Shown here: positions 21,455 through 62,240 of the stretch, one piece after another | Position numbering within the stretch: position 1 is the first letter of the stretch | How the letters are laid out: each line of letters begins with the position of its first letter | Source of the DNA: Escherichia phage V18 | Direction: 5' to 3' (one strand) | Sequence record: NC_041937.1 | DNA length: 64,000 nt | The notes under the pieces: model-generated | The model's database searches: none | The model's input: the letters and a program-made list of their open reading frames with translations, nothing else | Told to the model about the DNA's origin: nothing | Made by a program: the position numbers and the translations under genes

Positions 21455-21688
21455 ATGAAAGTTAAATTTCTTACAGATTTAGGGTACCCTTCCTTGGTTG
21501 ACTGTGTTGGTAAAATTGTGGAAGCAAAACGGCTATCTGCAAACGAGAATGTTGTCCTGGTTAAAGGGAAGGATTTACTAGCTGCAGGTGCAGAGTCTGG
21601 CAGGATCTCTCCTGATTATATGTATTACCTATCTTTAAGTAATCTGCCAGAGCGAGGCGGTAAAGGCCTTGAAGTTGTGGAGGAGTGA
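21455..21688 (+). CDS. small acidic protein, paralog family A (DL[IL]AAGA motif)
   Basis: 77 aa; MKVKFLTD… KDLLAAGAESG …EVVEE. Confidence 0.45.
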   Translation: MKVKFLTDLGYPSLVDCVGKIVEAKRLSANENVVLVKGKDLLAAGAESGRISPDYMYYLSLSNLPERGGKGLEVVEE

Positions 21689-22072
21689 CAGGTATGCTTC
21701 TGATTAACTGGGAAGACCTCTATGGGCCTTTATGGGAAAAGAGCATGTATTTAAAATGGTGCGTTAATTTAGGGAGGCCTTCCAGTGTTTCAAGCCATGT
21801 TTATTGAGATGCTATCTGGGGTATTGTTACTGGTAGCCATCTTAGGTGGTGCAGTTCTGATGTATAACTATCTTGAAAAAGGAGACAGCAATGGTAAAAA
21901 ATAAATCTTTAGAGCAGGCTGAAAACCTTCTCCACGAGCTGGTAAAGGAGTGGAAAGTTGAATACTCAGATTTTAATGCACGAGAGGGTGAAGATTATTG
22001 GCCTACGGAGCGCTCAGAGGGCGAATGGTATCAAGATTTTATAGAGTGGTTATATCAGACGTGCGATGAGGG

Positions 22073-22537
22073 GTGACGATGTTTGTTAAATATGTAAAAA
22101 CGTGCCTCAACAGTCTTGGCAGAGAGCATTGGTACACCTTGCTTGAAAAAGGGGAAATTTTAACAAAATCTGGAAAGATAACTTTTATACATAGTAAAGG
22201 TAAAGACCCGTCACGACTTGTTATAGATGATTACGTTACAGGTGTGACGTTCGAGGTCTCTGTGGAGAGGTTAATACGCAGAGCTGGCGGCCCTTATGAC
22301 CGAAGAGAGTATGTTTTCGATTCCGTTACAGAGATGGGGGAGCATCCGTCTTTAATGTTCAGGATGGTAATCAGAGATATGAGGTCATCTATAGATAGGA
22401 TTGTAAAGGACATTAAGGAACCTTTTAGAGTAAAAGTTAAGAAGTTTTTCGATTCTAAGATTAACATACTCGCCGTTGCACTAGGTGTAGTTCAACTTCT
22501 GTTAATTTTGCACTATTTTGAACTACTATTTAAGTAG
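22073..22537 (+). CDS. hypothetical protein with C-terminal transmembrane segment
   Basis: 154 aa; C-terminal ILAVALGVVQLLLILHYF hydrophobic helix. Confidence 0.35.
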   Translation: MTMFVKYVKTCLNSLGREHWYTLLEKGEILTKSGKITFIHSKGKDPSRLVIDDYVTGVTFEVSVERLIRRAGGPYDRREYVFDSVTEMGEHPSLMFRMVIRDMRSSIDRIVKDIKEPFRVKVKKFFDSKINILAVALGVVQLLLILHYFELLFK

Positions 22538-22599
22538 TAGTTGAGATATGGCACAAAGGATGTGCCATAGTGAAATAAACTAAGAAAGAGGTAGAGAGA

Positions 22600-22947
22600 A
22601 TGCCAAAGATTAAAACGTTATTACTGTGGGTAACTGTTTTAGCTTTTATAGGGTACTGGACTTGGGAAACTGAATTAAAAGATATAGGATATACCAGTCT
22701 TGAGAGCAAGGCGTGCATTGGCATAACCGATGCGTTCAGGCAAAATGCTATGGATCACGAATGTGTTGATGCAGATATAGATGAGAAACTGTCTAAGGAC
22801 AAAGATTTTTACCATGGGCATGCTTTACTTGATAGTGGTGACACTGTAGAGTTCTGGTCGTGGTTTCGTGAAGATGGAACAATAAAAACAGCAGTAAAGA
22901 TCTCTAACAAAGAGTTAATGCTGTTGCAGCAAAAGGAGGCTCAATGA
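22600..22947 (+). CDS. hypothetical protein with N-terminal signal/TM segment
   Basis: 115 aa; LLLWVTVLAFIGYW hydrophobic N-terminus. Confidence 0.35.
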   Translation: MPKIKTLLLWVTVLAFIGYWTWETELKDIGYTSLESKACIGITDAFRQNAMDHECVDADIDEKLSKDKDFYHGHALLDSGDTVEFWSWFREDGTIKTAVKISNKELMLLQQKEAQ

Positions 22948-23484
22948 TCTGGATATCCTATGCTGATGGCACCATGCTGTATACTGCAGGTACCAGATAT
23001 GAAGTTCAGGAGAACGATAAAAAATTTATCGTAAAAACATTTGACAAGGACGACAACCTTTTGCTAGAATTGACTTACAAGGTTGGAGAGGTATCCAATA
23101 TCCAATTGGATTGTGGTCATAAAGATAACCCACTCAAAAAACCTGGAATAGGCAAGGCTTCAGAAGAACGTTTGTCTCGTATTGCAGAAAGCGTTTCTAC
23201 ACAAAAATCTAAGAAGGGGACTAGAAAATGAAAAACTTACGTTTTAACACTGGCGCAATGGAAGAAGCAATATTCTAAACCAGGCGGGAGGGTTTTATGA
23301 AGCACTATTGCCTGTCTGGTAGAATGGGTACAGATTGTGATTGGGTTTTCTTAAAACTTGTCAGCATTCGAGAGTTCATCCCAGAGGAAGAGCAAGAAAG
23401 CGAGCTGATGTCATGGATCAACCATTACGGTAACACTTTTCGGCATGTTAAGGTAGAAGAGTTGCCAAGCGAGGCTGATTGACT

Positions 23485-23574
23485 ATGATTGCATCAATAT
23501 TAACGTTTATGGGTGGCGTGGCATTCGGATTCATTGTTTGCCTGTTTATAGTGATTATGTCTATGCGAGGCTGA
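23485..23574 (+). CDS. 29-aa hydrophobic peptide (putative)
   Basis: ATG at 23485; MIASILTFMGGVAFGFIVCLFIVIMSMRG; fills the gap between 23297..23482 and 23578..23949. Confidence 0.25.
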   Translation: MIASILTFMGGVAFGFIVCLFIVIMSMRG

Positions 23575-23945
23575 ATTATGAAACTTTTTGAGTGGTTTAA
23601 AAAGTTTAAATATAAAGCTGTAGCCATCGTGCCGTGGTCAATTCAGTGGGTTGATGAAGGTGGTCTACCAATACCTGGTGACAAAGATACTGGGTACTGG
23701 ATTATGATGGAGAACGGGTTTGGAAAGCGAAAGTATACGTGCACAAACTCTACTCGATCTGCCACTAACTGGTCTAAATTCTACTGGGGAGCCAACGAGT
23801 GGGGAAGATACGCCACCAAATCAATGGCACTTATTGGTATAGCAGAGTACATTGCAGCCAGAGATAGGGTTGGAGACACTTATTACTATACTGCGGACGA
23901 TATTCGTAACAGTGTTTACGTCCCACAACCACCTGATGGAGACCG

Positions 23946-24173
23946 TTGATGAAAGTTAAAGTTTTAGATTCAAGCTTCTATATTGGTCAGGAGCCCTTAG
24001 TGGGGAAAGTGTTTACTGCTGTCCCTAACGAAGATTACCCCGACCTTTTAAAAATAAAAGGGGCAGATCTTATTGCCGCTGGTGCATCTCATGAATGCTT
24101 TGACAGTCAGTGGACCTACAACTTTGCCCTAGGTGAGGATGTAGAGATAGTGGAGGACGATCATGAAGGTTAA
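23946..24173 (+). CDS. small acidic protein, paralog family A
   Basis: 75 aa; MMKVKVLD… ADLIAAGASHE …VEIVEDD. Confidence 0.45.
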   Translation: MMKVKVLDSSFYIGQEPLVGKVFTAVPNEDYPDLLKIKGADLIAAGASHECFDSQWTYNFALGEDVEIVEDDHEG

Positions 24174-24417
24174 AATTCTTGATTCTAACGTCTACTTGGG
24201 ACAATCCTTCCTGAAGGGAAAGGTAGTTCCTGCGGTATACTTTGAAGGGTTGCCGTGGGATGATCCTGTGCGGCAACATCACAGTTATGTAGGCCACAAC
24301 GTAGTGTTTATCTTAGGATCAGACCTGATCGCTGCTGGTGCACCGGAATATTATTTCGGGGAAGAATCCTATTATGCCTTTGGGGCAGGGTCAGATGCAG
24401 ATATTGTAGAGCTGTGA
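24163..24417 (+). CDS. small acidic protein, paralog family A
   Basis: 84 aa; MKVKILD… SDLIAAGAPEY …DADIVEL. Confidence 0.45.
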   Translation: MKVKILDSNVYLGQSFLKGKVVPAVYFEGLPWDDPVRQHHSYVGHNVVFILGSDLIAAGAPEYYFGEESYYAFGAGSDADIVEL

Positions 24418-24429
24418 TGGGTAACCGTT

Positions 24430-24825
24430 GTGAAAAATAAACTGTTCAAAGTTACAATGAAAATTCGCGGAGCTTGGAGCGTAAAGCAAGGGCGTATCCC
24501 AGAATTTGAGAAAGACTTCTACGTAGTCTCCACCTCGGAGGAGGCTGCATGCTGGCAGGCTGGCTATGCCTATGCAAGAACCTGGTACGAAGGATACCAG
24601 ACTGGGGGCTATGACGGAGAAATTATCAGCAAGGGTGTGGAAGAAATTAATGTGTTGACAAGTAAAAATTTTGTTATAGTGCATCCAGATTCCAGAGTGA
24701 AGCATTACTGGAATGCCAGAACAAAAACTTGGACACCGTTTGCAGATTCTGCTACACCACTTTTAAACCAAAAAGCTCTTGACTCTGCCCCGAGCTACGG
24801 GGTTGTTGAAGAAAAGCTAGACTGA
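24430..24825 (+). CDS. 131-aa protein, paralog family B
   Basis: …VIVHPDSRVKHYWNARTKTWTP…; paralog of 26635..27030. Confidence 0.45.
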   Translation: MKNKLFKVTMKIRGAWSVKQGRIPEFEKDFYVVSTSEEAACWQAGYAYARTWYEGYQTGGYDGEIISKGVEEINVLTSKNFVIVHPDSRVKHYWNARTKTWTPFADSATPLLNQKALDSAPSYGVVEEKLD

Positions 24826-25139
24826 AACAGTGAGGTGCCACTATGATGGATTTAGTTCTGAATATTGATAACGCAGGGGAGTTTAAAGACGATGGTGTAA
24901 CAAGCATTGACCAACCATGCTCTGCCAAGATTGACTCAAAATGGGCCTACAAGTTTGACGGAGAGATCTTCGCAAATGATGAGAAGGTTGTAGATGCTGC
25001 AGCCATTTTGAACGCTCTAGGGTACGACCCTGTGAATTCTTTGATCAAGGATCCTGTTGAGTTTGCAGAGTATGTTCGAAAAATGGCAGATCTTGCTGTA
25101 GATATTTTAGATACTATCGATAATAAGCTGTAAAAACTG

Positions 25140-25168
25140 TTGACACAACGCTTCAGATTTAGTATCAT
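25140..25168 (+). promoter_or_regulatory. sigma70-like promoter
   Basis: TTGACA 25140-25145, 17 bp spacer, TATCAT 25163-25168. Confidence 0.4.
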
Positions 25169-25217
25169 TGTTTTCAAAGAGAGATAGTTATTCCCTCTTC
25201 CTTAAAAGGAACACGTT

Positions 25218-25538
25218 ATGCAAATTGAAATCACTGGCAACAATGTAGAAATCACAGAAGGTATGGTATCTTTTATTTCCCGCAAAATGTCCAAGCTGGA
25301 GCGTTTACATCCCTCTGTCAACTATGCACGTGTGAGTGTAAAAGTTGAAAATGATCACCAGGAAGTTATGGCGTTCATTTTTGACAATTCTGGAAAAGAA
25401 GTTATTGCCAAAGCTAAAGGCAGTGATGCTTACGAGGCAACTGACCGTATGGTAGATGTTGCAGCACGTCAGCTGGCTAAATGCGGTGGAAAGAAAGGTA
25501 AGGGGAAAGGCAAAGTAAAGATTGACTTTGGAGAATGA
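25218..25538 (+). CDS. hypothetical protein with lysine/glycine-rich C-terminus
   Basis: 106 aa; MQIEITGNN…; C-terminal GGKKGKGKGKVK. Confidence 0.35.
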   Translation: MQIEITGNNVEITEGMVSFISRKMSKLERLHPSVNYARVSVKVENDHQEVMAFIFDNSGKEVIAKAKGSDAYEATDRMVDVAARQLAKCGGKKGKGKGKVKIDFGE

Positions 25539-25675
25539 GGTGCTACAATGGGTGTGATTAAGAAATTAGTCACAAATGTAGAGATTGCATGCTTTGAAAT
25601 TATGTTTGCAATCGCAGTTGTAGTTAATGTGTTAGGTTACGGCTATTAATATCAAATAATTGAGGAGACCTCTAA

Positions 25676-25945
25676 ATGAAAATTAAATTATTCAAAACTG
25701 AGCTGGCAGACAAAAACTGTGGACTGGTTGAAGGCATGATTGTTGAAGCACAACCAGTGGACTATATGAAGGTGGTTCGTGATGCCCTAGGTGAAGGTTT
25801 TGATCTGATGGAGCCAGCTCTGCGAGAAGATGTTATCGAGATGGCTAAAAAGCACACACCTGAAGGTTTGGTGGTGTTTGTTGCACCGGGTAACGGAGAA
25901 GAGTTGATTGTAACTCCGGATGTGTATGAGATTGTAGAGGAATAA
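25676..25945 (+). CDS. small acidic protein (family A-like architecture)
   Basis: 89 aa; MKIKLFKTE… ending YEIVEE. Confidence 0.4.
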   Translation: MKIKLFKTELADKNCGLVEGMIVEAQPVDYMKVVRDALGEGFDLMEPALREDVIEMAKKHTPEGLVVFVAPGNGEELIVTPDVYEIVEE

Positions 25946-26276
25946 TCCTGCTTGGATTAGCATACTTCCTCGATAAGGAAGATTTGTAATTATTTGTGGG
26001 AAAGGAATCCCAATCTCTTACCAGAGGTGATACTATATGATTGTTTATTTTAAAACTTCAGGTGGATACCCTGATTCTCAAAGCTTGATCGGAAAAACGT
26101 GCACAGCATACTCACCTCTTGATGAGGAGGTAAGCGATATTCTACGAAATATGTATCGGATTGACCCCCAAGAAGCTTTGATCAAAACCTTGTATTTGTC
26201 AAGGGCTCAGATATGAAGTCTTTGGGAGCATTCCCTGAAGCAGATGATGATGCCGTTTATTCGTTCATGACTCCTT

Positions 26277-26636
26277 TTGAAGCTATGGTTGTTGGGTGAT
26301 AATATGAAAGTACGCTTTATTGGTGAAACAATTCCTGTGCATCTCCGGTCTCCTGAGGATTCTGCAGATCTTGCATCTCAAAAGGCGAGAGGTTATGATA
26401 AGAAAGTAACCTCAACCGATGTAGTGCTTGAGGCTACTAGCTACCTGACCCTGCTGCATTCTTTAATCATTATGGGTACTATTTCAGCAACCTGATGAAT
26501 ATCGGTGAGCTTGTATTTATTAGTGGTGGAGAAATTGTTAGCAAGCTCGGTGGCGATCCAGATGTCTTTCATGAAACCTGTCCTTTTGCATTTGTGGTAG
26601 GTTCAGATGTGGAAGTTATTGAGGAGGTGCGGTAAT
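26277..26636 (+). CDS. family A paralog, apparently frame-disrupted
   Basis: N-terminus MKVRFIGE… in ORF 26277..26495; C-terminal half LVFISGGEIVSKLGGDPDVF…VVGSDVEVIEE in a small ORF 26496..26636 in another frame; mirrors 24163..24417. Confidence 0.35.
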
Positions 26637-27030
26637 GGTAAGCCTATACCGTGTCGAGTATAGCTCGGATACTGTATACAACGTAAGAAGCAAAGATCGC
26701 AGCGACAGAGTGCAAGAAATGTATGTTCTTGCCGACAGTCCGTTATCTGCAGCGTTCAAGGCAGGGGCTCTTGCATCTCGTTGGAAATTTGAAGGTGGAT
26801 CTTTCTATGAAGAAACCCTTGAAGATTCTGTTGTTATTTCTTCTGTAGAGGTTTCAGATGACTACGAAGGGAAAAAGTTCGTAATGCGGCACCCACACAG
26901 CAATATTGCGTACTACTGGGACGTTCTGAACAACGAGTGGACCCCAGATCTTCAGAAGGCTACTGTGCTAACACCGTTTTTGGCAGATAAGTTCCCACCA
27001 GAAGGTAATTTATCTGCACTGTTTCAGTAA
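26635..27030 (+). CDS. 131-aa protein, paralog family B
   Basis: …VMRHPHSNIAYYWDVLNNEWTP…; paralog of 24430..24825, same length. Confidence 0.45.
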   Translation: MVSLYRVEYSSDTVYNVRSKDRSDRVQEMYVLADSPLSAAFKAGALASRWKFEGGSFYEETLEDSVVISSVEVSDDYEGKKFVMRHPHSNIAYYWDVLNNEWTPDLQKATVLTPFLADKFPPEGNLSALFQ

Positions 27031-47809: not shown

Positions 47810-49036
47810 TTAGAAAGGGATCGAGTCATCGAACTCATACTGTGCTGGATTCTGATCCATTGGGTCATCTTCCTCATCATTTACAGGAGGAGCGTCTACA
47901 GTGTTTTGCTGTGGAGCTGCTTCCTGTTTGGCAGCTTGAGGTTCTTGATGGTCAGTGGACCCAGCACCGTTCTTGATCCAATCGTACAACGGCTCAGCCA
48001 GATTAGTCAAGACATCTTTTGCTTCTGCAGTAATTGCCGCTGCAAAATCATCAACTTTCGTTTTCTTGTCAATACGGCGACAAGCGTTCAACACCGCATT
48101 GCCGACACTGGCACCTACTTCATCTTCAGTTCGGTTGGTGGCTTGAGCATACTCTTTCTTAAGCTCAATGGTGACTACGTGCAGTGTTTTAGCCACGCCT
48201 AGTGGGTCGTCCACCTTAAACCCGCGATCCAGGATGATCTGCAACGCATTGATGCTATGTCCCGTCTCCACACCGATAGGGTCGTAAGAGGATTTACGCT
48301 TGCCACCAGAGCCTTGAGTGCCGTTCTCTGCCTTAGGAGGATAGGCCTTGAAACCACTGATAATGTTTCCGGTGTCTTTGTCAACAATGGCTGCAACACG
48401 ACCACCTACCACCAGGTCTTTAAGCTGCTCATCAGTGACAACCATAGCACCTTCGCCAATCTTGTGGTCATTAACAGTAACCACGTTGCCAACAATCTGA
48501 GTCACATCACCATAGATGCGTAAAACGTCCTGATTGGCATTCTGCTGAGGTTTCTGCTTCTGGCCTTGTGATTGTGCACCTTGTTGCTGTTTTTGCTGCT
48601 GAGTCGCTGCTGGAGCCTCTCCTGCACCCAGCTTAACCATCTTAGCCAGTGAGCCTTTGTAATAGGTCTTACCGTTATGCTCGTTTGCCTTCAAAGGGAT
48701 ATTTACGATCCATCCTGGCGTTACGGTTTCCCACTTGTCATCAATCTTAACAGAGACAGAGTCTTGATGACCCGGTTTAAGCAGTTTATCACCCATGCTG
48801 ATCCAGACTTCTTCACCACCTTGAAGCAGGTTATCAGAGGAATCCAGTTCAGAAATCAGTAAAGAGATGGTGTGGCTGGATTCAATTTTCTTACCTTGCC
48901 ACACAGTGGTTTTAATACCTGTTGTAGGATCAGTACCTTTGATAGGCTTGATGCTGACACGTTTAATCATGCCGTGAGCCAGTAAAACAGTTTCACGCGG
49001 ATTCATCGGGTTAGCGAATTGTTGAATAACGCTCAT
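47810..49036 (-). CDS. ssb: single-stranded DNA-binding protein
   Basis: 408 aa; Gln/Gly-rich linker; C-terminal acidic tail …EFDDSIPF matching the SSB C-terminal D-D-D-I-P-F type motif. Confidence 0.6.
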   Translation of the reverse strand: MSVIQQFANPMNPRETVLLAHGMIKRVSIKPIKGTDPTTGIKTTVWQGKKIESSHTISLLISELDSSDNLLQGGEEVWISMGDKLLKPGHQDSVSVKIDDKWETVTPGWIVNIPLKANEHNGKTYYKGSLAKMVKLGAGEAPAATQQQKQQQGAQSQGQKQKPQQNANQDVLRIYGDVTQIVGNVVTVNDHKIGEGAMVVTDEQLKDLVVGGRVAAIVDKDTGNIISGFKAYPPKAENGTQGSGGKRKSSYDPIGVETGHSINALQIILDRGFKVDDPLGVAKTLHVVTIELKKEYAQATNRTEDEVGASVGNAVLNACRRIDKKTKVDDFAAAITAEAKDVLTNLAEPLYDWIKNGAGSTDHQEPQAAKQEAAPQQNTVDAPPVNDEEDDPMDQNPAQYEFDDSIPF

Positions 49037-50427
49037 TATTTGTCTCCTTGTTCTTCGTTAGTGTTTGCCGTGTGTGCAAACCCTGCCTGAATTAATTTGT
49101 CCTGAACTTGAGCCAACAGGCCCATTGCAAAACTTGTGGTCCCAGAGAGAGCCATCAGCATATCTCGTTGTTGAGCTACCCAACCTAAGGCATAGTCCAA
49201 ACGACGATATTTTTCTTCTTCGCGCAGAGCCTGAAATAATTGTTCAGCCTCCGGTTGTTGTGTGAGCTCCTGAAGTCTTCCCATGAAAGAAGAAAGCACT
49301 AGCAAAAGAGACACTTGATCTTTACTTAACCCTAAGAAAAATTCTTGAGGTTGTTCTTGCTCGTTCATTGCAACCGACGTTTGATCGTTCATTTGTTCCA
49401 TTATGGAATCTCCGATTTTATTTGAACAACATAGAAGGAGACACTATTTTAGCATCCCCTTCTGCAAATTACAATAGGTATTTGTTAGCCAATCACTTCA
49501 AAAGTTCCCCAATTCCCGTCCAGCAGGCAGGTGATCGGATCCCCATCGTCGTCAAAGATTTCAAAGTTTTCAGCATCCAGGATGTGACCCTCGAACACGA
49601 TACTTTCGTCTCCACCACCAGAAATAACAGCGTATTCCTTACCTTGAGTCAAGTTTTGACACCCTTTGCCACCAAAACCTACTTCAACACAACGTACTTT
49701 CTGTCCTGCGCGAGCAACTGCTTCAGTCATCTTAAGGTCTCCTGATATTAATCGTCAAGTTCAAAATAGATTTTAACAGCTTCATCAAAGATTGGAATCC
49801 CGATGTTGTTGATAAGCTGCCAAACTACCATATCTTTACCTGGATCTGGGAGAATGTCAACCTTTCTCCATGCGCTGTATACCCAGTTCGGACCGCCTTC
49901 TGCACTAACTGGCAGATTTTCACCAGCTTCTTGTAGATACTTATACAGCAAAAGATATTCTGGATACTCTAGAACACTGTCCTCTGTAGTATATAGCAGT
50001 TCACGGTATACTTTTAAGAACCCTGCTGGGGTAATGTTTTCAGTCTTCATTTGCCGCTTCTCCTGCATTCATCAGGTCTGCCATAGCGTCACCCACGAAG
50101 AGGACAACCACATCGTTGACAGCGTCAGCATCATCTTTGTTGACGTTGCTGAATTTAGGACACACAGCAATGATCATATAGACACCGTTACCAACCTGAA
50201 CTGTCCGTGTGGTGCACATCATGGCGGTATTTGTGCCTTCTTTGAAGGCGAAGCTTGAAGACGCTCCTCTAAAGTGTTACCGGTAGATTTCAGAAGCGCC
50301 AGCTCGTCCAAGGCATAGATGATATCTCCGGAAGTTAGTGTTGCCTTGCCATCAGACACCATAATCACTCCATCAGCACCGTCAAGCTTAGAGGCTTCAA
50401 AGATATCAATATCCCAAATATTTTTCA

Positions 50428-50760
50428 TTACGCTTCCTCGTCGTCTAAGTAATCATCAAGAGAGGTGAAGATTTCACCGAAGTATTCTAAGATTTCTAGC
50501 TCACGTGTGGTGCAGCAAACATAATCTCCTTGGTCGTCCTTAATAGTGGCCTCTTTACCCAGAACATCTACTTCAAATTCATCGTTCAGCAGGACGGCCC
50601 CTGTGTAAACTTTGTCAGCTGTGCAGTCCCGAAAAGCAGAGTCCTTTTCCAGATAGTCTGGCTTAACCTTGGCTTTAATTCGTTGATATTGTTTGGTCAT
50701 TGCTGTGGTCTCCTTTCGTTTTGATAGGGCCATTATATTAGGCCCCATCACTGTTGTCAA
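50428..50760 (-). CDS. small acidic protein, tandem paralog 1
   Basis: 110 aa; KPDYLEKDSAFRDCTADKVYTGA… vs KPECVANDRAFKDCTVGAIYEA… in 50764..51018. Confidence 0.4.
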   Translation of the reverse strand: MTTVMGPNIMALSKRKETTAMTKQYQRIKAKVKPDYLEKDSAFRDCTADKVYTGAVLLNDEFEVDVLGKEATIKDDQGDYVCCTTRELEILEYFGEIFTSLDDYLDDEEA

Positions 50761-50763
50761 GTA

Positions 50764-51018
50764 TTAATGTTCAGGTTTTACAAAAACTACTTCATTAACA
50801 GTGCACCAGACAGAGTCTCCTTCGTCATCTTTAAAGGTAAGGCACTGTGCTGAGTTTTCCAGCTCATCAATCTCTTCTTGTGATAAAGGGGCCCCTTCTT
50901 CCAGAAGGGCTTTTACCAGAGGGTTCTCACAAAACTCTGCTTCATAAATTGCACCGACTGTGCAATCTTTAAAAGCTCGGTCATTTGCAACGCATTCTGG
51001 CTTCAAAGTAATTTTCAT
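50764..51018 (-). CDS. small acidic protein, tandem paralog 2
   Basis: 84 aa; see 50428..50760. Confidence 0.4.
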   Translation of the reverse strand: MKITLKPECVANDRAFKDCTVGAIYEAEFCENPLVKALLEEGAPLSQEEIDELENSAQCLTFKDDEGDSVWCTVNEVVFVKPEH

Positions 51019-52225
51019 CTTGGCAGTCTCCTTAGTTATTTAAAAATCAACGCTCTGTTTGTGTGAAGCATCTTATATCTAATCTTACTTCTTGTCAATG
51101 ACTATTTTCAATCAGCCACACAGGGTCGAGGTAGATTTGTTGGCGTGTTGCCCAATGACAAACTTCATTGTACATCTGCACCTCTTTGTCTGTCAATTCA
51201 CGAATAGGCTCATCTATACCCTCATTTTTGTGGTAATCCCAGTCGGCATCGATTTCCCACAGCCATGACTTGTTGTCACCACGCTTACGCACACAGAAGT
51301 CACCAGGACGGCCTGCCAGTGCATTTAAGAACTCGTTCTCTGCTCGCTCTTGAAGAATGCTAAGGAGCAAAACGTTGGAGCATGACCGTAAAATATGCTT
51401 CAGCTCACAATCATCAATCTCAACTTCAATACGTTGTTTGACTGTGTGGGTACCTTTTACTAACATCCTACCTCCTCTAAACGAACTCTGCAAGGGTTGT
51501 GTTGTTCACTGCACCACAGTAAATGGAGTATCCCAGCCCATTAGAGTGCAGAAACCACGGCGTGCCGAAATTATCTTTCACGTAGACATCGCCGTTGCTT
51601 GTAAAGGGCCAATATTCTTCACCAAGGGTGAAATACCTACTCATACCCTCAGCCAGATACTTTACTTTCATAGGTCCTCTTCAACAGCTACAAACTTGGC
51701 AAGCAGGGTGGTTCCGTAGATATGATACTCACCGTTTGCCAGATGGGAGATAAACCAGGCAATCCCTTCCTCGTCTTTAATCATCTTGTTTGCACGATTT
51801 TTATCGTAATAAACCTCGTAGGTCTTTCCTTCTTTAAAGAAGGACAGGTCTGTCATCTTTTCTTCTACAAAAGTAGCTTTAACCAAAGTTGTCATTGATC
51901 GGTCTCCTTCTTGTTAAGTCTGAATACTGCAATAATAGCATTCCCAAGGTGCAGTGTCAAATCATTTCCAAGATACCACAGCATCCCACGGTCATCTTTA
52001 ATGAAAGGGTAACAATCTGGTGCCTTCCAGACATTGTACACTTTGCCAACCTGAAAGAAATCAGGCCCTGTTGGGATTTTAGTTCCAGGCCACACTTGAG
52101 ATACCTGAACACATTCCACCTGCATAATAACAGGGATAGTCATGGATGTAAATGTTTTTGTTGGTTCTACTACCATAAAAGTCTCCTCTTTGCTCAACAA
52201 CACTTCCATGTGTTGATAGTTTACA

Positions 52226-55003
52226 TTAGTGACAATCACCCCAATTACGACCACACAAGTATTCACCTGTGATCTGGAACGGGACTCCCATCATTTTAGA
52301 AGCTTGCCAGAAGCAATGCACCACCATTTCACCCACAGGGCTCCAGATAAGCTCAAGCTTTCCGTCATCGTTCAGGATAGGATCGTACACCGTGTTTCCG
52401 TCTCTGTCAACCACTTCGTTTCCGTCCTCATCCTTGCGTGCCTTTTTGTACTTATGACCGTCGAACACATGAAGTTTGGCCTCCTGCTCTGCCTTAAATG
52501 CTTCCAGTTCTTCGATTGTGTCGAAGGTGTACACAGTCTTATACTTCGGTGTGTCAGGGACTTGAAGCTGATATTCGTCATGGTAATAGATAATACGACG
52601 AACACCTTCATCGTACCACCCACGCTTCACCATTTGGTGGTGCATGAGTATCCCAACTAAGTCACACAGCGATGCACCACCATTCTGTTGGTATGCATTA
52701 AGTAAAGAGTGTTTAGATCGGGTCCAGATAGCATGACCATCAAAAGAGTAGATAAACTTCTTACCCGTTGCTTCCCAGAATTTCTCCAGATCTTCTTTAC
52801 GCCCCTTAAGACCGGGGTTGGCATCCCAAAGTGCATCGATTACCCTTTGTCCCAACTCTGGAGAGATGTCCAGCATATCTGCAACTTTATCTTTTTGTGC
52901 CCCATACATAACCCCATACGTGATAGGTTTACCGTCGTTACGAGACACCTCTCTGCCTGCTACTTTTGTATATGCTTCAGCATTGTTTTGGTGTGCGTCC
53001 CCGTTACTTACAACATCATAATACAATCCGTTGTCGAACTCAAAGGCACCCCAAGCCCCGATAAGCTGCTCTAAGTTGGACCCGTCAATACCGATCTCAA
53101 AGTATCCTGGAGGAACACCCCACAGACTACGCATCTCTTTACCCATGACCACTTTAGGAGATGGTTTAGGCATGTTTGCACAAATACTGTGTTTCTGTCG
53201 GGAAGTGTTTGTTAACCCAGAGCTTTTAGCAGGAAGCTTATGGTCAATCTTCAAACGTGGATGATTAAGAAGACCAGTATCAACCTTATCCTCCTTGATT
53301 GGATCAAGTACCGATCTGCGGTTTCGCAATGATAACCACAAGACGATATCTTTAGCCATCTCTCCGTTCAATTTTTCAAGATTCGGGCATAGGTGTCCAA
53401 ACGTATCTTTCAGTTGCGGAGAAGTAATAAGTGCCCTAGCTTTTCTACGTATTTTCCCGAATACTTCCTTTTTAATCCTTTCGGAGTTAGGAAAGCTTCG
53501 GAACTTGTGCACGGTTGTCTGGAACTTAGCATCAGTTTTGTTCCAGAAGTTGATAATCAGGTCACAATACTCTGACTCTAAAAGCTCGTCCATATATGCA
53601 TATACTCGTGCATCAACATCTGCATCAGGTAGAGCTTTCTTCTTGCTGTCTTTAGTTACATCCTTAGTTCTCCACATTGTCGGAAGCCAACCAGCACTGA
53701 TCAGGTATCGCTTAATGTCGTCCTGGTTGCTGATTTTCATAGGTATCTTGCAGTCCGGCATTCGCTTCTGCTGTAGATCACTTATTGCCTGATCCATTAG
53801 CTCTTTAGGTAAAGGTTGTGGTGTGGAGGTGCCCTTAATATAGCCTCTCAAGAAATCAGCCATCTTATCGGGGTCTTTGCAGCCCATCTCTTCACACCAT
53901 TTTATCCCCATCTTACTGACATCTCCTGTAGAGGTAAATGCTCGCTTAGGCGGGGCTTTGAACTCTAAAGCGCTCATATCTACAGGATAGCCAAGCTTAT
54001 CTTTTAACCATTTCCAACCATTATTGGAGATTGTCCCATCTTGGTTAAACGGCTTTTCAGGGAACTTGGGCCGCTGAGACATTGACAGCTCTTTTAAAGG
54101 TAGTTGCGGTTCAACACGATCAGCGATTTCTTTCATCCACGCATCGCAACGGTCACGTAAAGCAATAGCTCCATCTATGTCAAAATACACACCCTGACGG
54201 GCCTGCAGCTCCATCAGGAAGTGCTGCAGCATGCCTCGGCGTAATGCGTTCTTCCAGGTGATCTTCTTGAACCCTTTCGGCTTCTCTTTGGCAGGATCGT
54301 ACATAAAGTTCTGCATGTCAGATTTGCCGTAGAATACACCTTTTGATTCCGCTACCAGCTCTTTCCAGAGCAGCTCCTGGATGATAACGTCCTCGAATAC
54401 ACGATCCACATACTTCCACAACGGAAGATCGCGCCAGTCATCAATTTGAACTTTCTGGTTACCAAGGGCGTAGCCCCATGCCATAAGGCCGTGAGGACCA
54501 ACAGGTTGCATTTTCTTAGTAACCGGGTTGAATACAGCGTCCGGACAACCTTTTGGTAAAGGGCGATCAGGCCACAAGATTCGGCTCATAGCCAACGTAT
54601 CAAACAGGTTAACCTGGTGGTCGTTGATAGTCCCCATGCATTTAGGATCACGGAACATATCAAAATGAATACCGGATAATCTTTCCATCAGCATAAAGTC
54701 ATAACTGTAGCAGTTATGGCAGTTCAAAGCTGTTGGTGACCAGTCGGAATTGCCTGTAAGCCAACCTTCCAACTCCGAAAAATCTGCTATGCGAACTTCA
54801 AAATCTTTATAAAGAGTTTTCTTTGCCAGAATAAAGTTCTTAGCCTTTTCTATATCCTCCTCGGAGTAGTGTGTGCGGCTATTTAGAGGAAGGAACAGCA
54901 TAAAACGGTTCTTATTCAGCTCTTTAAACAGACCGCAGTGATAATAAAGATCTGGGTCTTCCAGCAAACCGGATGACTCAAAATCGAACGACCACATACT
55001 CAT
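52226..55003 (-). CDS. DNA polymerase, family A, with N-terminal 3'-5' exonuclease domain
   Basis: 925 aa; N-terminal FDFESSGL (Exo I); polymerase motif B …KPITYGVMYGAQ and motif C YYHDEYQLQV. Confidence 0.85.
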   Translation of the reverse strand: MSMWSFDFESSGLLEDPDLYYHCGLFKELNKNRFMLFLPLNSRTHYSEEDIEKAKNFILAKKTLYKDFEVRIADFSELEGWLTGNSDWSPTALNCHNCYSYDFMLMERLSGIHFDMFRDPKCMGTINDHQVNLFDTLAMSRILWPDRPLPKGCPDAVFNPVTKKMQPVGPHGLMAWGYALGNQKVQIDDWRDLPLWKYVDRVFEDVIIQELLWKELVAESKGVFYGKSDMQNFMYDPAKEKPKGFKKITWKNALRRGMLQHFLMELQARQGVYFDIDGAIALRDRCDAWMKEIADRVEPQLPLKELSMSQRPKFPEKPFNQDGTISNNGWKWLKDKLGYPVDMSALEFKAPPKRAFTSTGDVSKMGIKWCEEMGCKDPDKMADFLRGYIKGTSTPQPLPKELMDQAISDLQQKRMPDCKIPMKISNQDDIKRYLISAGWLPTMWRTKDVTKDSKKKALPDADVDARVYAYMDELLESEYCDLIINFWNKTDAKFQTTVHKFRSFPNSERIKKEVFGKIRRKARALITSPQLKDTFGHLCPNLEKLNGEMAKDIVLWLSLRNRRSVLDPIKEDKVDTGLLNHPRLKIDHKLPAKSSGLTNTSRQKHSICANMPKPSPKVVMGKEMRSLWGVPPGYFEIGIDGSNLEQLIGAWGAFEFDNGLYYDVVSNGDAHQNNAEAYTKVAGREVSRNDGKPITYGVMYGAQKDKVADMLDISPELGQRVIDALWDANPGLKGRKEDLEKFWEATGKKFIYSFDGHAIWTRSKHSLLNAYQQNGGASLCDLVGILMHHQMVKRGWYDEGVRRIIYYHDEYQLQVPDTPKYKTVYTFDTIEELEAFKAEQEAKLHVFDGHKYKKARKDEDGNEVVDRDGNTVYDPILNDDGKLELIWSPVGEMVVHCFWQASKMMGVPFQITGEYLCGRNWGDCH

Positions 55004-55061: not shown

Positions 55062-57055
55062 TTAAAAAGGCGTTTCATCATCCTCAAAACCAGGGACCGG
55101 GTCAGAGGATGGATCATCGTACTGGAGGTCTTCCTGCGTGTCAACAGGCTTAACAGTAGGAGTTACAACCTTATCAGCCACAACCTTGCCCATAGGTGTT
55201 TCTACAACTGCATGCTCCTGATCCTCAAACATAGCCTGAGGTCTCCAAACAACCTCCCCGCCTTCTCCGTCTGTAAACATTTGCATTTCTTTGTCCCAGT
55301 ACCAATTACTGGCATCATGGAACTTACCTGTGTGCGGGTCCATAACCAAAGTGTCAGCAATACCTAGAGTTTTTGCTGGACGGTTTTTAAGACCTACCAG
55401 ACGGACACGTCCACGAGAACGATCCACCATTTCTTCGGCCTCGACACCTATGACTACCCAACTCAACTGTTCAAGCCCAGCCGATCCTCGCAAATTCTCT
55501 TTTCGCACAGGATACCAGAAAGGTAACGGGTTACCATCCTTGTCCTTAGGAGGCACAATCTCTGTACGTTTGAGGTGAGCGATCACCAAGATAAACACAT
55601 TAAACTGCTTACAAAACGCAGCCAGTTGGGTCATAGCCATGTCCAGTTCTTTTCGCTCATCCTTAACATTAAGCCCTGAAATTACCATGGACAGGTGATC
55701 CAGCACAATATAACGACAATGGTACAGGCAAACCATTTGCTTAAGCTTGGTAATCAACTCGTCCACCGGAATAGACCCGAAATGTTTGAACACTTTGATT
55801 TTTCCAGCTTTTGCCCATGATTGGTGAATCTCTGCGTGTTCTTGATCAGTTAAAAACTGGCTAGGATCTTCAACAAACTCTTTAACATCAAACCCTAACT
55901 GGTTTGCATACAAGGAGTTAATTGCTTCCTCTGGGTCCTCCTCAAGATGGATCATGCATAGACGATCATCCTCTTCATAGTCATCAGCCTTCGGGCATGT
56001 CGGGTCCATTAGGTATCTTGCAATACAGTGTTCCAGTTTTTTAGCCACGGTTGTTTTACCGCCCCCTGATGGCCCTGTAAGCATTACGAGTGTCCCTTTG
56101 TGCAAGCCTTTTAGCATTTTTTGCAGTTTTGGGAACTCTGCGCTGATATCTACCCCGTTGGAAGTCTTTTTCCGCAAAGACTCGATAGAGAAGTCTTCTA
56201 AATCCGACACAGCATCAGGCACATATTTAACAGGATGCCGGAACATGTTGACAATATCTTCCAGCTTTTTAGCCTTCAGCATGTCACGGATATCTTTTAC
56301 ACCGTCAGGATCGTTTACCTCACCGGGGTATTCTACGTGGTAAACGTTATCAGCCATCAAAAATGCTGCAATATTGTGCGTGGCCTCGACACCTTTAATG
56401 ACGTGTTTTTGCTTCTCTACCTCGTTAGCTGCATCGTTATCCATTGCCAGCACAACTGTTCCATAGCTACGGATAAACTTCTCATTGTTTGCAAAAGTAT
56501 CTACTGCGTTTGCACATCCACAGTTAATTCCAACAAAAGGTAGGCAAGGTTTTCCTGCCAGATCACCACCGTTGATAACTGCGTCGATCCCGTCCTGGAC
56601 CTCTTTAGCCCACTGCTTCACCTTTGCCGGGGCTTTAGCGTTGGTGAGAATCCCTTTTACTTGTATCTGATATGCAGCCTGCCATGCTGCAATAACATCA
56701 CCTTCTCCCTCACAAACGTTAATCTGCTTACGGTTGTTGGAAGATGCACACAGCTTTTGACCAAACATCTGGGAGTTGGCCTTTACTATGCTACTACAGA
56801 CCAGTGCCCTTTCTGCTCTTTCGGCTTAGACCAGTCACGCTTTTTGAAACCAGACAGATTTCCGTAGCGGTCGTAATATGGGAAATATGTTGCAGTGACT
56901 GTCACACCGTCTTCTTGGGACAATGCTGATCGCACACCAAAATATTGTGCAGCCATCAGACCGATATTTTGTTGTGGGACAGGGACAATTTTAGTATTTT
57001 CTAAAACAGTCTCTACAGTTTCAACCTCTTTTTCATCACGATAGTCTCGTTTCAT
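55062..57055 (-). CDS. primase-helicase (TOPRIM primase domain + DnaB-family helicase), N-terminal part in a different frame
   Basis: ORF 55062..56768: TOPRIM EGEGD and LAMDNDAAN; Walker A LTGPSGGGKTT; Walker B-like FILVIAHL. A separate 89-aa ORF 56786..57055 immediately upstream ends 18 nt before it in another frame; I did not identify a primase motif in it, so the join is positional. Confidence 0.65.
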
Positions 57056-58826: not shown

Positions 58827-59170
58827 CAGAAACCTCCCACTTCTTCAGCAAATGCAGCTGCTGTCGTCGCTGCATCCAGATAGGACTCTAGTTCACGGGA
58901 TGCACGTTTGTAAATTGAGTGGCGCATATCGTTTGGCAGTTGGTGGAAGTCCACCTCTTCACCGTTGTGGTAAACATGCACATCGGTAATTTGTCTAAAT
59001 CCGTAATAGTCAACATCAGAATCACGGCACTCTGGGTCTGGCAACTGGACAACTGCCTGAGCTTCCACAGTGAACATATCGTCAAGTTCGAAATCGATTT
59101 CAAAAGTGTATGGTTTATAACGTTTCATCATTTGATTGTGCTCTTTATTGATCAGACTTATCTTTCGCAA
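58826..59170 (-). CDS. hypothetical protein
   Basis: 114-aa ORF. Confidence 0.35.
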   Translation of the reverse strand: MRKISLINKEHNQMMKRYKPYTFEIDFELDDMFTVEAQAVVQLPDPECRDSDVDYYGFRQITDVHVYHNGEEVDFHQLPNDMRHSIYKRASRELESYLDAATTAAAFAEEVGGF

Positions 59171-60470
59171 TTAAGGTCGGGGTAAGTTTGTAATAACGGA
59201 AGCCACCACCACCTTTCCAGTTTACAGACTTAGAAATACCACCTTGATCTTCGCCATCGATCACTTTTTCCAAGCGCGGAATAATATGGGTATGACAATG
59301 ATCACCTAGCTCGATTGAGATCCAACGTCTTTTCATCTTGTGAGCTACAGCAGCAGTAGTTCCCGAACCACCGAATGAATCCAATACCAAATCGCCTTCT
59401 CGCGTACACATTTCTAAAATCCGCTTCAAAAGAGCTTCTGGTTTTTTCCCATTTTTGAAACTGACGCCGCCTTCATTTGCTATTCCATTCCAACTAATGT
59501 CTGTCCAAACATCAGTTATTAGTTCCGCAGGTTGCATCTCACCGTCAATTTCCAAAAGTCTATTGGAGTAAAAGACCATTTGCCTACCATTTGCGATATA
59601 AAATCCTTCAACATCCTCATTTGGATGTACATAAACCTTATCCCTATCTTTCTTTGACTTCTCGATAGTTTCTTTTCTCTTTATTTTAGCACCACCACCA
59701 ATTGCAACAGATTGAAATACACGTTCTGCATTATCAGTTGCGAATTGTGCTAATTCATCATCGAATGTATCAGGCAGTTTTTTCTTGGCTTCTTTTGCAT
59801 CTTTATAACCATTGGCCTTTGCAAACGCATCGGCAATACCGCACCACGTCCAATTTTTATAATGGTCATCCGGGTTTAATAGGTATTTGTTATATCCTGT
59901 ATCATACCCTTTAGGTATATAGATTTTGTTAAGCGGTTTCTGGGTGCGATCTTTTGCATATACAAGCAAAAAGTTTGCTGTGGAGAAAACTGTGGCTCCT
60001 GTTGCCTTAAATCCCGAAGGGGAATTTGTGGTCATCGATATGGTATTTAACTGATTTGCACGACCAAAAATCTCGTCCATCAAAACTTTTAAATACGCCA
60101 TTTCGCAATCATCTAAGTGAACGAATATTACCCCATCATCACTTAGAAGATTACGAATTATTTCTAACCTATCCCTCATTAAGCCCAGCCAAATGGAATG
60201 CTCCAGGCTATCATCGTAGTGCTCAAAAGCCCTTCCGGTATTGAATGGTGGGTCTATGTAAACACACTTCACTTTGCCTGCATACTCTTGCTCTAGCGCC
60301 TTCAATGCTAATAAGTTATCTCCAAAAATCAGTTTATTATCAAAAATATCGTTTTCGGTCACTTTCTGGCTGTGGTAAGACTTGCTAGAATCCTCTAACA
60401 AAATGTGCGGCTCTAACTTTTTGCGCTCGTTTTTACCTATCCAGGTAAGTTCTAATTTGGTTTTGCTCAT
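59145..60470 (-). CDS. DNA methyltransferase, beta-class N6-adenine/N4-cytosine type
   Basis: 441 aa; catalytic VYIDPPFNTG upstream of the AdoMet motif VLDSFGGSGTTAAVA (beta-class order). Confidence 0.7.
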   Translation of the reverse strand: MSKTKLELTWIGKNERKKLEPHILLEDSSKSYHSQKVTENDIFDNKLIFGDNLLALKALEQEYAGKVKCVYIDPPFNTGRAFEHYDDSLEHSIWLGLMRDRLEIIRNLLSDDGVIFVHLDDCEMAYLKVLMDEIFGRANQLNTISMTTNSPSGFKATGATVFSTANFLLVYAKDRTQKPLNKIYIPKGYDTGYNKYLLNPDDHYKNWTWCGIADAFAKANGYKDAKEAKKKLPDTFDDELAQFATDNAERVFQSVAIGGGAKIKRKETIEKSKKDRDKVYVHPNEDVEGFYIANGRQMVFYSNRLLEIDGEMQPAELITDVWTDISWNGIANEGGVSFKNGKKPEALLKRILEMCTREGDLVLDSFGGSGTTAAVAHKMKRRWISIELGDHCHTHIIPRLEKVIDGEDQGGISKSVNWKGGGGFRYYKLTPTLIAKDKSDQ

Positions 60471-60531: not shown

Positions 60532-60873
60532 CTACTCAAGGTCTTCAGAGTCAAGCTCAAAAAGAATCAAACTGTGCATGCCTGCAGAGAGATTAACACA
60601 CCCTGCAACAATAAGGGTTTGATAGTAAGGTTCAGCACCCTCAATGTCTTCGTTAAAATCCACAACAAGGTAGTCACCTTTGTTAAAGGTGTATTTGTCC
60701 GATGTAAACGCAAAACCTGCCCAGTCCCCTACTGCAGGATCTTTATCAGTCACCTTTGTTAGCAGTAGATCTTTTTCACGAGATCTTTTAGTAAAATCGT
60801 GAATCACAACATCCTTCTCTTCAGGAGTCGGATTGCCACACACGTAGTTAACGATATTTCTCCACAAACTCAT
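60532..60873 (-). CDS. hypothetical protein
   Basis: 113-aa ORF. Confidence 0.35.
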   Translation of the reverse strand: MSLWRNIVNYVCGNPTPEEKDVVIHDFTKRSREKDLLLTKVTDKDPAVGDWAGFAFTSDKYTFNKGDYLVVDFNEDIEGAEPYYQTLIVAGCVNLSAGMHSLILFELDSEDLE

Positions 60874-62240
60874 ACGTCCCCCTCTTCTGCTCTGGTTTCA
60901 AAATCTTTCCTGACAATTTTGTCTAAGTCAGGGAATGTTGTATTGTAAAACTCTACGACTCGCGGGTCAACAATAATGTCAACTTCTCTTAGCGGACGCA
61001 ACAAGTTTATTCCTTGTATTGTCTTAACTCTACTCAAAGCGACATACGTCATCCCAGGAGAGAAAGCTCCGTTCTTTCCAAGGTCTAGGTTGTAACAATC
61101 TAGCGTAAGTCCTTGACTTTTATGAGATGTTACGGCGTACCCAGATTTCAGAGGAAGTTGCTTGTATGACCCAATCACTACCCTCTCTATAAACTTCTCC
61201 ATCTTCCTTTCTGCAATGTTGTATCTCTGAGATGGCTTATACTCGTTATTCTCCCACAACCTCTGCTCTATGTCAACCTGTGTTCCATCTTCAAGCTCTA
61301 CCACCACCGCCTTGTTCTTAAATTTAACAATCGTGGCACGTGTTCCGTTAACATAATAAGGTACTTTGTGCGTCGGGTCAACATCGTTGGCGGTTATCAT
61401 AACTTTCATGCCAATTTTCAACTTCATCTCCTGCTCAACTGGCAGGGTGGAGGGAAACTTACCCTTCATTTCACCAGTGTATACCTTCTCTGGGGCGTTG
61501 ATGGCATCATAGAACCTTCTGTTCACTTCCTCTGCTTGTTTGTTGGTGGCGCAAATTGTGAGAGCATCTGTTGGTACACCACCTTTGTAACAGCGAGCAT
61601 TAAGTTCTGCTACAACCTCTTTTATGCGACGACCCTCACGAACACAGTTGAGCATTGTGGCAAATCGAATAGACTCCTGTCGGAACTGATCTATTAGGGC
61701 TATGTTGTGGAGGTCAAGCTCTTTCCAAGATTCGGTATAGCAACACAGGTCCGTATGGTAGAAGTTGAAATAGGCTTCCTTCTCCATAGAAGAGACAACA
61801 GGAGGTGCCTGGTAAAAATCGCCAAACAATATGACCTGTATGCCTCCGAAAGGTTTGTCATTTTTTCGAAGGAAGCGGAGTTTCCTATCCATCTCTATAA
61901 ACTTATCAGCGCGGATCATAGAGATTTCATCGATAATTAGGATGGTAAATGCCTTGCTTTTCAAAGGCTTTGCTGTTTTTGCCCTTATTGCGGTCCAGTC
62001 TGACTCCATGCTCACACCTGCTGCAAGATCGAAGGTTCGGTGTGCTGTTGCTCCATTAACGTTTAAAGCGGCTACCCCTGTCGGGGCAACCGTTATGCAA
62101 GAGTCTCCATACATTGACTGGATCATGTTGATGAGATACGTCTTCCCACAACCTGCAGGCCCTGAAACGAAGACATTCTCACCACTCATGATTGCAACGA
62201 GGGCAGCATCTGTGCCTACATCATACTGCCCTTTTTCCAT
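60870..62240 (-). CDS. superfamily 1 DNA helicase, Dda/RecD/Pif1-like
   Basis: 456 aa; Walker A VSGPAGCGKTYL, Walker B ILIIDEISM, further SF1 motifs (VILFGDFYQ, GYAVTSHKSQGLTL, VALSRV). Confidence 0.7.
   Translation of the reverse strand: MEKGQYDVGTDAALVAIMSGENVFVSGPAGCGKTYLINMIQSMYGDSCITVAPTGVAALNVNGATAHRTFDLAAGVSMESDWTAIRAKTAKPLKSKAFTILIIDEISMIRADKFIEMDRKLRFLRKNDKPFGGIQVILFGDFYQAPPVVSSMEKEAYFNFYHTDLCCYTESWKELDLHNIALIDQFRQESIRFATMLNCVREGRRIKEVVAELNARCYKGGVPTDALTICATNKQAEEVNRRFYDAINAPEKVYTGEMKGKFPSTLPVEQEMKLKIGMKVMITANDVDPTHKVPYYVNGTRATIVKFKNKAVVVELEDGTQVDIEQRLWENNEYKPSQRYNIAERKMEKFIERVVIGSYKQLPLKSGYAVTSHKSQGLTLDCYNLDLGKNGAFSPGMTYVALSRVKTIQGINLLRPLREVDIIVDPRVVEFYNTTFPDLDKIVRKDFETRAEEGDV

Follow-up and report, generated by a model that had tools for sequence, protein, structure and literature searches.

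The window analysed here is a 64-kb stretch (64,000 nucleotides) of Escherichia phage V18 (NC_041937.1), an rV5-like Vequintavirus. Every gene of the window beyond ~47.8 kb is carried on the minus strand, and Pfam models identify two helicases, a DNA methylase and a family A DNA polymerase in this leftward replication-gene arm. A run of small ORFs follows the polymerase in the direction of transcription. The fifth and sixth members of this run, genes B and A, are separated by 63 bp, are both on the minus strand, and lie between the DNA polymerase and an essential 408-amino acid protein (47810..49036). The 4-kb stretch around the pair is 97–98% identical to more than 100 Vequintavirus phages. 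The features of the locus, in the order of transcription, are as follows.

60870..62240, minus strand, PIF1-like helicase (Pfam)
59145..60470, minus strand, DNA methylase (Pfam)
55062..56768, minus strand, DnaB-like helicase (Pfam)
52226..55003, minus strand, family A DNA polymerase (Pfam)
51070..51098, minus strand, predicted sigma-70-type promoter of gene B (P220), TTGACA-17-TAAGAT, 10/12 consensus match
50764..51018, minus strand, gene B, 84 amino acids, pI 4.2 (rV5 ORF220, rv5_gp215; bas54_0081; phrog_12544)
50732..50760, minus strand, predicted sigma-70-type promoter of gene A, TTGACA-17-TATAAT, 12/12 consensus match
50723..50749, minus strand, 9-bp inverted repeat GATGGGGCC / GGCCCTATC, whose 9-nt loop holds the -10 hexamer of gene A
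50428..50700, minus strand, gene A, 90 amino acids, pI 4.2 (rV5 ORF219, rv5_gp214; bas54_0082; phrog_11936)
49485..49730, minus strand, candidate third family member, 81 amino acids, pI 4.1 (rV5 ORF216; bas54_0085; phrog_4927)

The initial annotation described the pair as lying upstream of the replication genes, which is correct in plus-strand coordinates only. Since the whole arm is transcribed leftward, the genes for the DnaB-like helicase and the family A DNA polymerase come first, and the pair lies downstream of them. The 408-amino acid protein on the other side (minus strand) has a Gln-rich linker and a C-terminal acidic tail, EFDDSIPF, resembling the C-terminal tip of bacterial SSB, and a Pfam search with it returned no match; it may be a phage single-stranded-DNA-binding protein. 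The gene that directly follows A (50040..50428, minus strand) has an ATG overlapping the stop codon of A (TAATG) and encodes 129 amino acids in phage HdK5 and in rV5 (gp213). The copy in the window is broken, having lost 1 nt by comparison with HdK5 (a G missing from CAAGGCTTC near 50245), and the loss splits it into ORFs 50219..50428 and 50040..50222. The split gene is either a pseudogene or the result of a sequencing error.

Gene B is preceded by a Shine-Dalgarno sequence, AAGGAG, at 51033..51028. The same hexamer occurs at 50715..50710, where it precedes an ATG at 50700 by 9 nt, and this ATG is the likely start of gene A, giving a protein of 90 amino acids. Many GenBank records instead start gene A at ATG 50733, in the same frame; this codon overlaps the -10 box and lacks a ribosome-binding site. 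The start first assigned to gene A in the window, a TTG at 50760 yielding 110 amino acids, is also too long. It is an artefact of choosing the longest ORF, as this TTG belongs to the -35 hexamer of the TTGACA-17-TATAAT element at 50760..50732.

Both products are small and acidic, as had been noted, with a pI of 4.2 and a net charge of -12 spread over 84 (B) or 90 (A) residues. Gene A ends in an acidic tail, SLDDYLDDEEA, and in gene B the loop that joins strands 2 and 3 carries an insert of ~15 residues (the NPLVKALLEEGAPLSQEEIDELE region). Four cysteines (C19, C30, C59, and C72) are invariant among B-type sequences, and two (C26 and C63) are kept among A-type sequences. The positions invariant within Vequintavirus are D20, F23, D25, C26, Y32, D55, D56, G58, D59, and C63.

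Genes A and B had been proposed to be a tandem paralog pair on the basis of two shared segments. Both minus-strand ORFs exist and contain the segments quoted, namely KPDYLEKDSAFRDCT and KDDQGDYVCCT in A, and KPECVANDRAFKDCT and KDDEGDSVWCT in B. The pairwise alignment is significant (BLASTP, 32% identity over 77 residues, E 3e-10), and the Smith-Waterman score of 98 was reached by none of 5000 shuffles (mean 26.3 ± 4.9, maximum 53). With each protein as a phmmer query, the sole match among the 395 ORFs of the window was its partner (E 2.5e-8 and 9.6e-8). A profile built from A-type sequences only and one built from B-type sequences only also align with each other (hhalign, probability 98.2%, E 4.8e-14). 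Each protein matches its own PHROG HMM over its full length (A to phrog_11936, residues 1–90, E 5.1e-59; B to phrog_12544, residues 1–84, E 7.2e-60), and the two PHROGs, whose founding types A and B are, match each other at E ~8e-6. The genes are adjacent, lie on the same strand, and occur as both types of orthologue in related genomes, as is expected of the local tandem duplication that had been suggested. Comparison with related phages gives the same picture, the order of B followed by A being kept in three divergent metagenomic relatives (L003, L015, and L016). These comparisons confirm A and B as homologous tandem paralogs. They also link phrog_11936 and phrog_12544 as one family, to which phrog_4927 perhaps belongs as well.

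The resemblance that had been drawn to the plus-strand arm is also borne out, since tandem pairs exist there, for example 23946..24173 with 24163..24417 (42% identity, E 1e-13). Other paralogs within this arm (21455..27030) are 21455..21688 with 23946..24173 (E 1e-5) and 24430..24825 with 26635..27030 (E 3e-7). In the replication-gene arm, 51668..51895 and 51892..52176 (minus strand), which lie just past the polymerase gene, are distantly paralogous to one another (hhalign probability 76%, P 2.2e-5, with PHROG cross-hits). These two and 51477..51671 were considered as relatives of A and B for their 'GKxY...KDDxG' appearance and were rejected (hhalign P 0.05–0.2).

The ORF at 49485..49730 is a better candidate for a further family member. 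Its product shares the pattern C.N.T.GKEY...F.I.DDDGD.I.C with A and B, and hhalign of the A/B profile against its family gives a probability of 75–78% (P ~2e-5), compared with P of at least 0.004 for unrelated neighbours. Its AlphaFold model is poor (pLDDT 57), and a fold search with this model was uninformative. We tentatively take this protein to be a third, much more distant and older paralog of A and B.

At the DNA level, the match between A and B survives only in a 34-nt stretch over the KDDxGD..C motif, and dS between the two genes is 2.4, which is saturated. In each of the three divergent metagenomic relatives, the gene context is the same and the B-type gene precedes the A-type gene. 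Identity is 51% from A to A, 53% from B to B, and 28–32% from A to B. Because orthologues are more alike than paralogs and both types are present, the duplication predates the split of the lineages of these relatives. Judged by these comparisons, it is ancient, not recent. For each gene, dN/dS is ~0.10 (11–12 loci), and therefore A and B are real, constrained coding genes under purifying selection.

Natural variation occurs in both genes. In gene A, the distal hairpin comes in two main allelic forms (ATIKDDQGDYVCC or AVIEDDNGDCVFC) and the tail in two lengths, with recombination among these variants. Gene B is frameshifted in the isolated phage JLBYU08, and its insert carries in-frame deletions in two metagenomic variants (P0010 and P0006). 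The acidic tail of gene A was considered as a conserved functional motif and rejected, because the A-type protein of L015 lacks it and in that of L003 it differs. A metagenomic protein of 131 amino acids (P0012) is a deletion variant in which residues 1–66 of A run straight into the C-terminal half encoded by the next gene (window 50040..50700); its junction at a shared CTTR peptide suggests microhomology.

The distribution of the family is narrow. Within the phage collection, A and B are found in 114 Vequintavirus records only and always together. When 1.84 billion representative proteins were searched exhaustively with an HMM, there were just 10 family matches, and hence no informative distant homologue; one of the 10 is a metagenomic protein of 159 amino acids with two copies of the domain. 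A word-indexed protein search with the A and B profile found close Vequintavirus relatives and nothing further, and a single-protein query of IMG/VR led to two loci. Searches with A and B of Pfam, PADLOC, and PDB sequences gave nothing above threshold. The Pfam family DUF7127 scored 14.7 bits (E 0.037), which is below its gathering threshold of 27.6 bits, and was matched by 3 of 17 family members. Sixteen of the phage records bear the name 'Campylobacter phage' and are nearly the same in sequence as E. coli rV5-like phages (e.g., L009, MG065666), and one of these (A12a, L009) carries an UNVERIFIED flag. The 'Campylobacter' host labels on rV5-like records are probably wrong.

We obtained an AlphaFold2 model of A (pLDDT 82.9) from an alignment of 11 sequences, this number being small because the family is so narrow. 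The model has strands at residues 5–12, 31–37, 50–54, 60–64, and 68–78, along with a short helix at 65–67. Its five strands follow the order seen in SH3 and Tudor-like barrels, including that of YorP from the B. subtilis SPbeta prophage (PDB 2HEQ), with RT-like and n-Src-like loops, a distal hairpin, and a 3-10 helix that precedes the final strand. The D.AF.DCT motif lies in the long first loop, the insert of B falls in the variable second loop, and the KDDxGD motif (DDQGD in A) forms the tight Asp/Gly distal hairpin between strands 3 and 4. A Foldseek search of the PDB gave no significant match (best E 0.23, TM 0.41–0.52; E 0.23–2 and TM 0.3–0.5 across the best hits), with SH3, Tudor, or YorP small barrels being the top non-significant matches. 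The Pfam models of SH3, Tudor, and YorP matched neither A, B, nor any of 17 family members, even at E ≤1. Among predicted viral structures in BFVD, Foldseek matched a Shigella phage orthologue of B (E 1.9e-4) and an Edwardsiella phage protein whose weaker match lies above the 1e-3 cutoff (E 3.9e-3); both are uncharacterised. The family domain (~70 residues) is thus predicted to be mostly β and to form an SH3-like barrel. The term describes topology and not family membership, as the Foldseek matches to solved structures are non-significant (E ≥0.23).

Each gene appears to have its own host-type sigma-70 promoter, both being consensus matches. P220, the promoter of gene B, was predicted earlier for rV5 ORF220 (PMC3606486, Table S4) and is annotated in NC_011041. 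The same paper lists no promoter for ORF219 and mentions neither paralogs nor a duplication (PMC3606486). The element upstream of gene A matches the sigma-70 consensus perfectly, and no other site in the 64 kb does so. When up to one mismatch is allowed, the window contains nine sites where 0.6 would be expected by chance, and all nine are oriented in the local direction of transcription. The gene A promoter is kept in all aligned relatives, including the distant L003, and its rV5 version has TACAAT (11/12). Both promoters are kept in the aligned Vequintavirus loci. L003 shows the gene A promoter alone, P220 being unrecognisable there because the region upstream of its B gene does not align.

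The inverted repeat around the -10 box of gene A is conserved. Across eight distinct sequences, including that of L003, 98.6% of cells are paired, as compared with 29–47% for controls slid off the repeat. Four pairs have changed on both sides, and 2 of 500 shuffles were as good. From its sequence, the repeat could be an RNA hairpin on transcripts that read through from P220, or an operator. The RNA hairpin is favoured because G-U pairs occur on the sense strand only. A standard terminator was rejected, as no T-run follows the repeat. The gene A promoter and the hairpin are previously unannotated.

Functional information on the pair comes from Bas54 (MaxBurger, MZ501093), in which gene essentiality was mapped by transposon sequencing with HIDEN-SEQ (10.1101/2025.11.20.689424). 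Translation shows that bas54_0081 is B and bas54_0082 is A. Insertions were recovered at 11 of 11 TA sites in bas54_0081 and at 15 of 17 in bas54_0082, and both genes were classed as Non-essential (10.1101/2025.11.20.689424, Extended Data Table 8). Three others were classed as Essential, namely the primase/helicase, the polymerase, and bas54_0087 (orthologous to the 408-amino acid protein encoded at 47810..49036), and disruption of bas54_0083, the orthologue of the gene after A, reduced fitness (10.1101/2025.11.20.689424). On the clinical isolate CFE311, neither bas54_0081 (log2FC +0.85) nor bas54_0082 (log2FC -0.05) was depleted (adjusted p 0.9–1.0) (10.1101/2025.11.20.689424). The orthologues of A and B are each dispensable singly in Bas54 on E. 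coli K-12 and one clinical isolate; the data cover single insertions only, on K-12 and a few clinical strains. ORF219 is absent from the mass-spectrometry table of the rV5 virion, and the only '220' in that table is a score value, not an ORF number. A search of the literature found no functional study of the A and B genes.

With modest confidence, we favour the reading that A and B are old tandem duplicates of an acidic SH3-like barrel specific to rV5-like phages, and that they serve as accessory partner-binding proteins that specialised after duplication. Their size, barrel fold, and strong negative charge, together with their belonging to no catalytic family, lead us to infer small binding proteins and not enzymes. 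Unmodified host RNA polymerase would transcribe both genes early to middle in infection, and the products would be accessory proteins that are neither enzymes nor virion parts. Each would bind its partner one-to-one, and this partner would most plausibly be a basic protein, of host or phage origin, that takes part in DNA metabolism or defence. Following duplication, A and B would have specialised to different partners or partner variants through the loop insert of B and the tail of A, and some overlap in function may persist, sufficient for either copy to stand in for the other. Redundancy of this kind would explain the tolerance of single insertions.

The conserved Cys and Asp residues might instead form a Zn2+ or Ca2+ site, with function being metal-dependent and the role being that of structural zinc or of calcium or metal sequestration. 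Conserved cytoplasmic cysteines are often metal ligands, and the four cysteines of B-type and two of A-type sequences are kept, as are the acidic DDxGD hairpin and D20/D25 in both proteins; the Ca-binding protein CcbP is also among the weak Foldseek matches (rank 12, E 1.1). However, the cysteines are not kept in a distant two-domain relative (P0028), their spacing is unlike that of a known zinc knuckle, and no metal-binding family was matched. We consider a metal-binding role unlikely. About equally improbable is that A and B are acidic mimics of nucleic acid, comparable to the anti-restriction or anti-defence proteins Ocr, ArdA, and Arn, with a DNA-binding protein of host defence or repair as the target that they block. 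A net charge of -12 on 84–90 residues would suit such mimics, as would the predicted early-type promoters, the accessory and K-12-dispensable status of the genes, and the recombining hairpin alleles and tail forms of A, which are often a trait of arms-race genes. Yet the predicted fold is a compact barrel and not an elongated DNA-like surface, and acidity is not specific to the pair, most small ORFs of the arm being equally acidic (rV5 Table S3). Searches of Pfam and PADLOC revealed no similarity to a known mimic or defence-related model, dN/dS of 0.1 gives no sign of diversifying selection, and the single clinical isolate tested (CFE311) revealed no conditional requirement.

It is less probable still that the two genes are functionally redundant, without specialisation, and kept mainly for dosage or robustness. 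Each copy is dispensable singly, B is broken in an isolated phage (JLBYU08), and the core motifs are common to A and B. Against this, identity between the copies is down to 32%, the insert of B and the tail of A are themselves conserved across divergent lineages, and both copies have been under purifying selection since before the lineages split. The low identity, the conserved insert and tail, and the long retention of both copies therefore argue for distinct roles. Comparably doubtful is a more elaborate scheme in which a family of Cys/Asp-rich mini-barrels found only in phages (A, B, and the candidate at 49485..49730) neutralises a host defence or replication factor, A and B cover different host variants, and the hairpin coordinates expression. 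In such a scheme, gene A would be switched between co-transcription with B and independent firing, either through folding of the RNA upon read-through from P220 or through binding of a repressor to the repeat around the -10 box.

The genes themselves are known ones. ORF219 and ORF220 of rV5 and their orthologues are the same genes in the same order with the same neighbours (protein identity 87–100% for A and 86–100% for B). All annotations treat the two as hypothetical proteins with no relation between them, and in PHROGs they form separate families. In Bas54, bas54_0081 and bas54_0082 are direct orthologues of B and A, but that phage is a different isolate and the genes have no function assigned. 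T4-like phages have runs of small ORFs between their replication genes, and these ORFs are short, mostly acidic, singly dispensable, and served by host-type promoters; they often occur as diverged local paralogs. The likeness of the A and B pair to such runs is in genome architecture only, no sequence relationship having been found. By HIDEN-SEQ, 190 genes are non-essential in T4 and 146 in Bas54 (10.1101/2025.11.20.689424).

The pair is real and was correctly interpreted as a duplication, but it is an ordinary phage accessory-gene pair in a well-sampled genus, and nothing in it challenges current ideas. Its value is mainly in annotation: the family link, the correction of the start of gene A in many rV5-like genomes, and the addition of the consensus promoter and the hairpin. 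Phage therapy and biocontrol both make use of vequintaviruses, whose accessory genes are mostly without a known role. If A and B cover for each other, single-gene transposon screens may miss their function.
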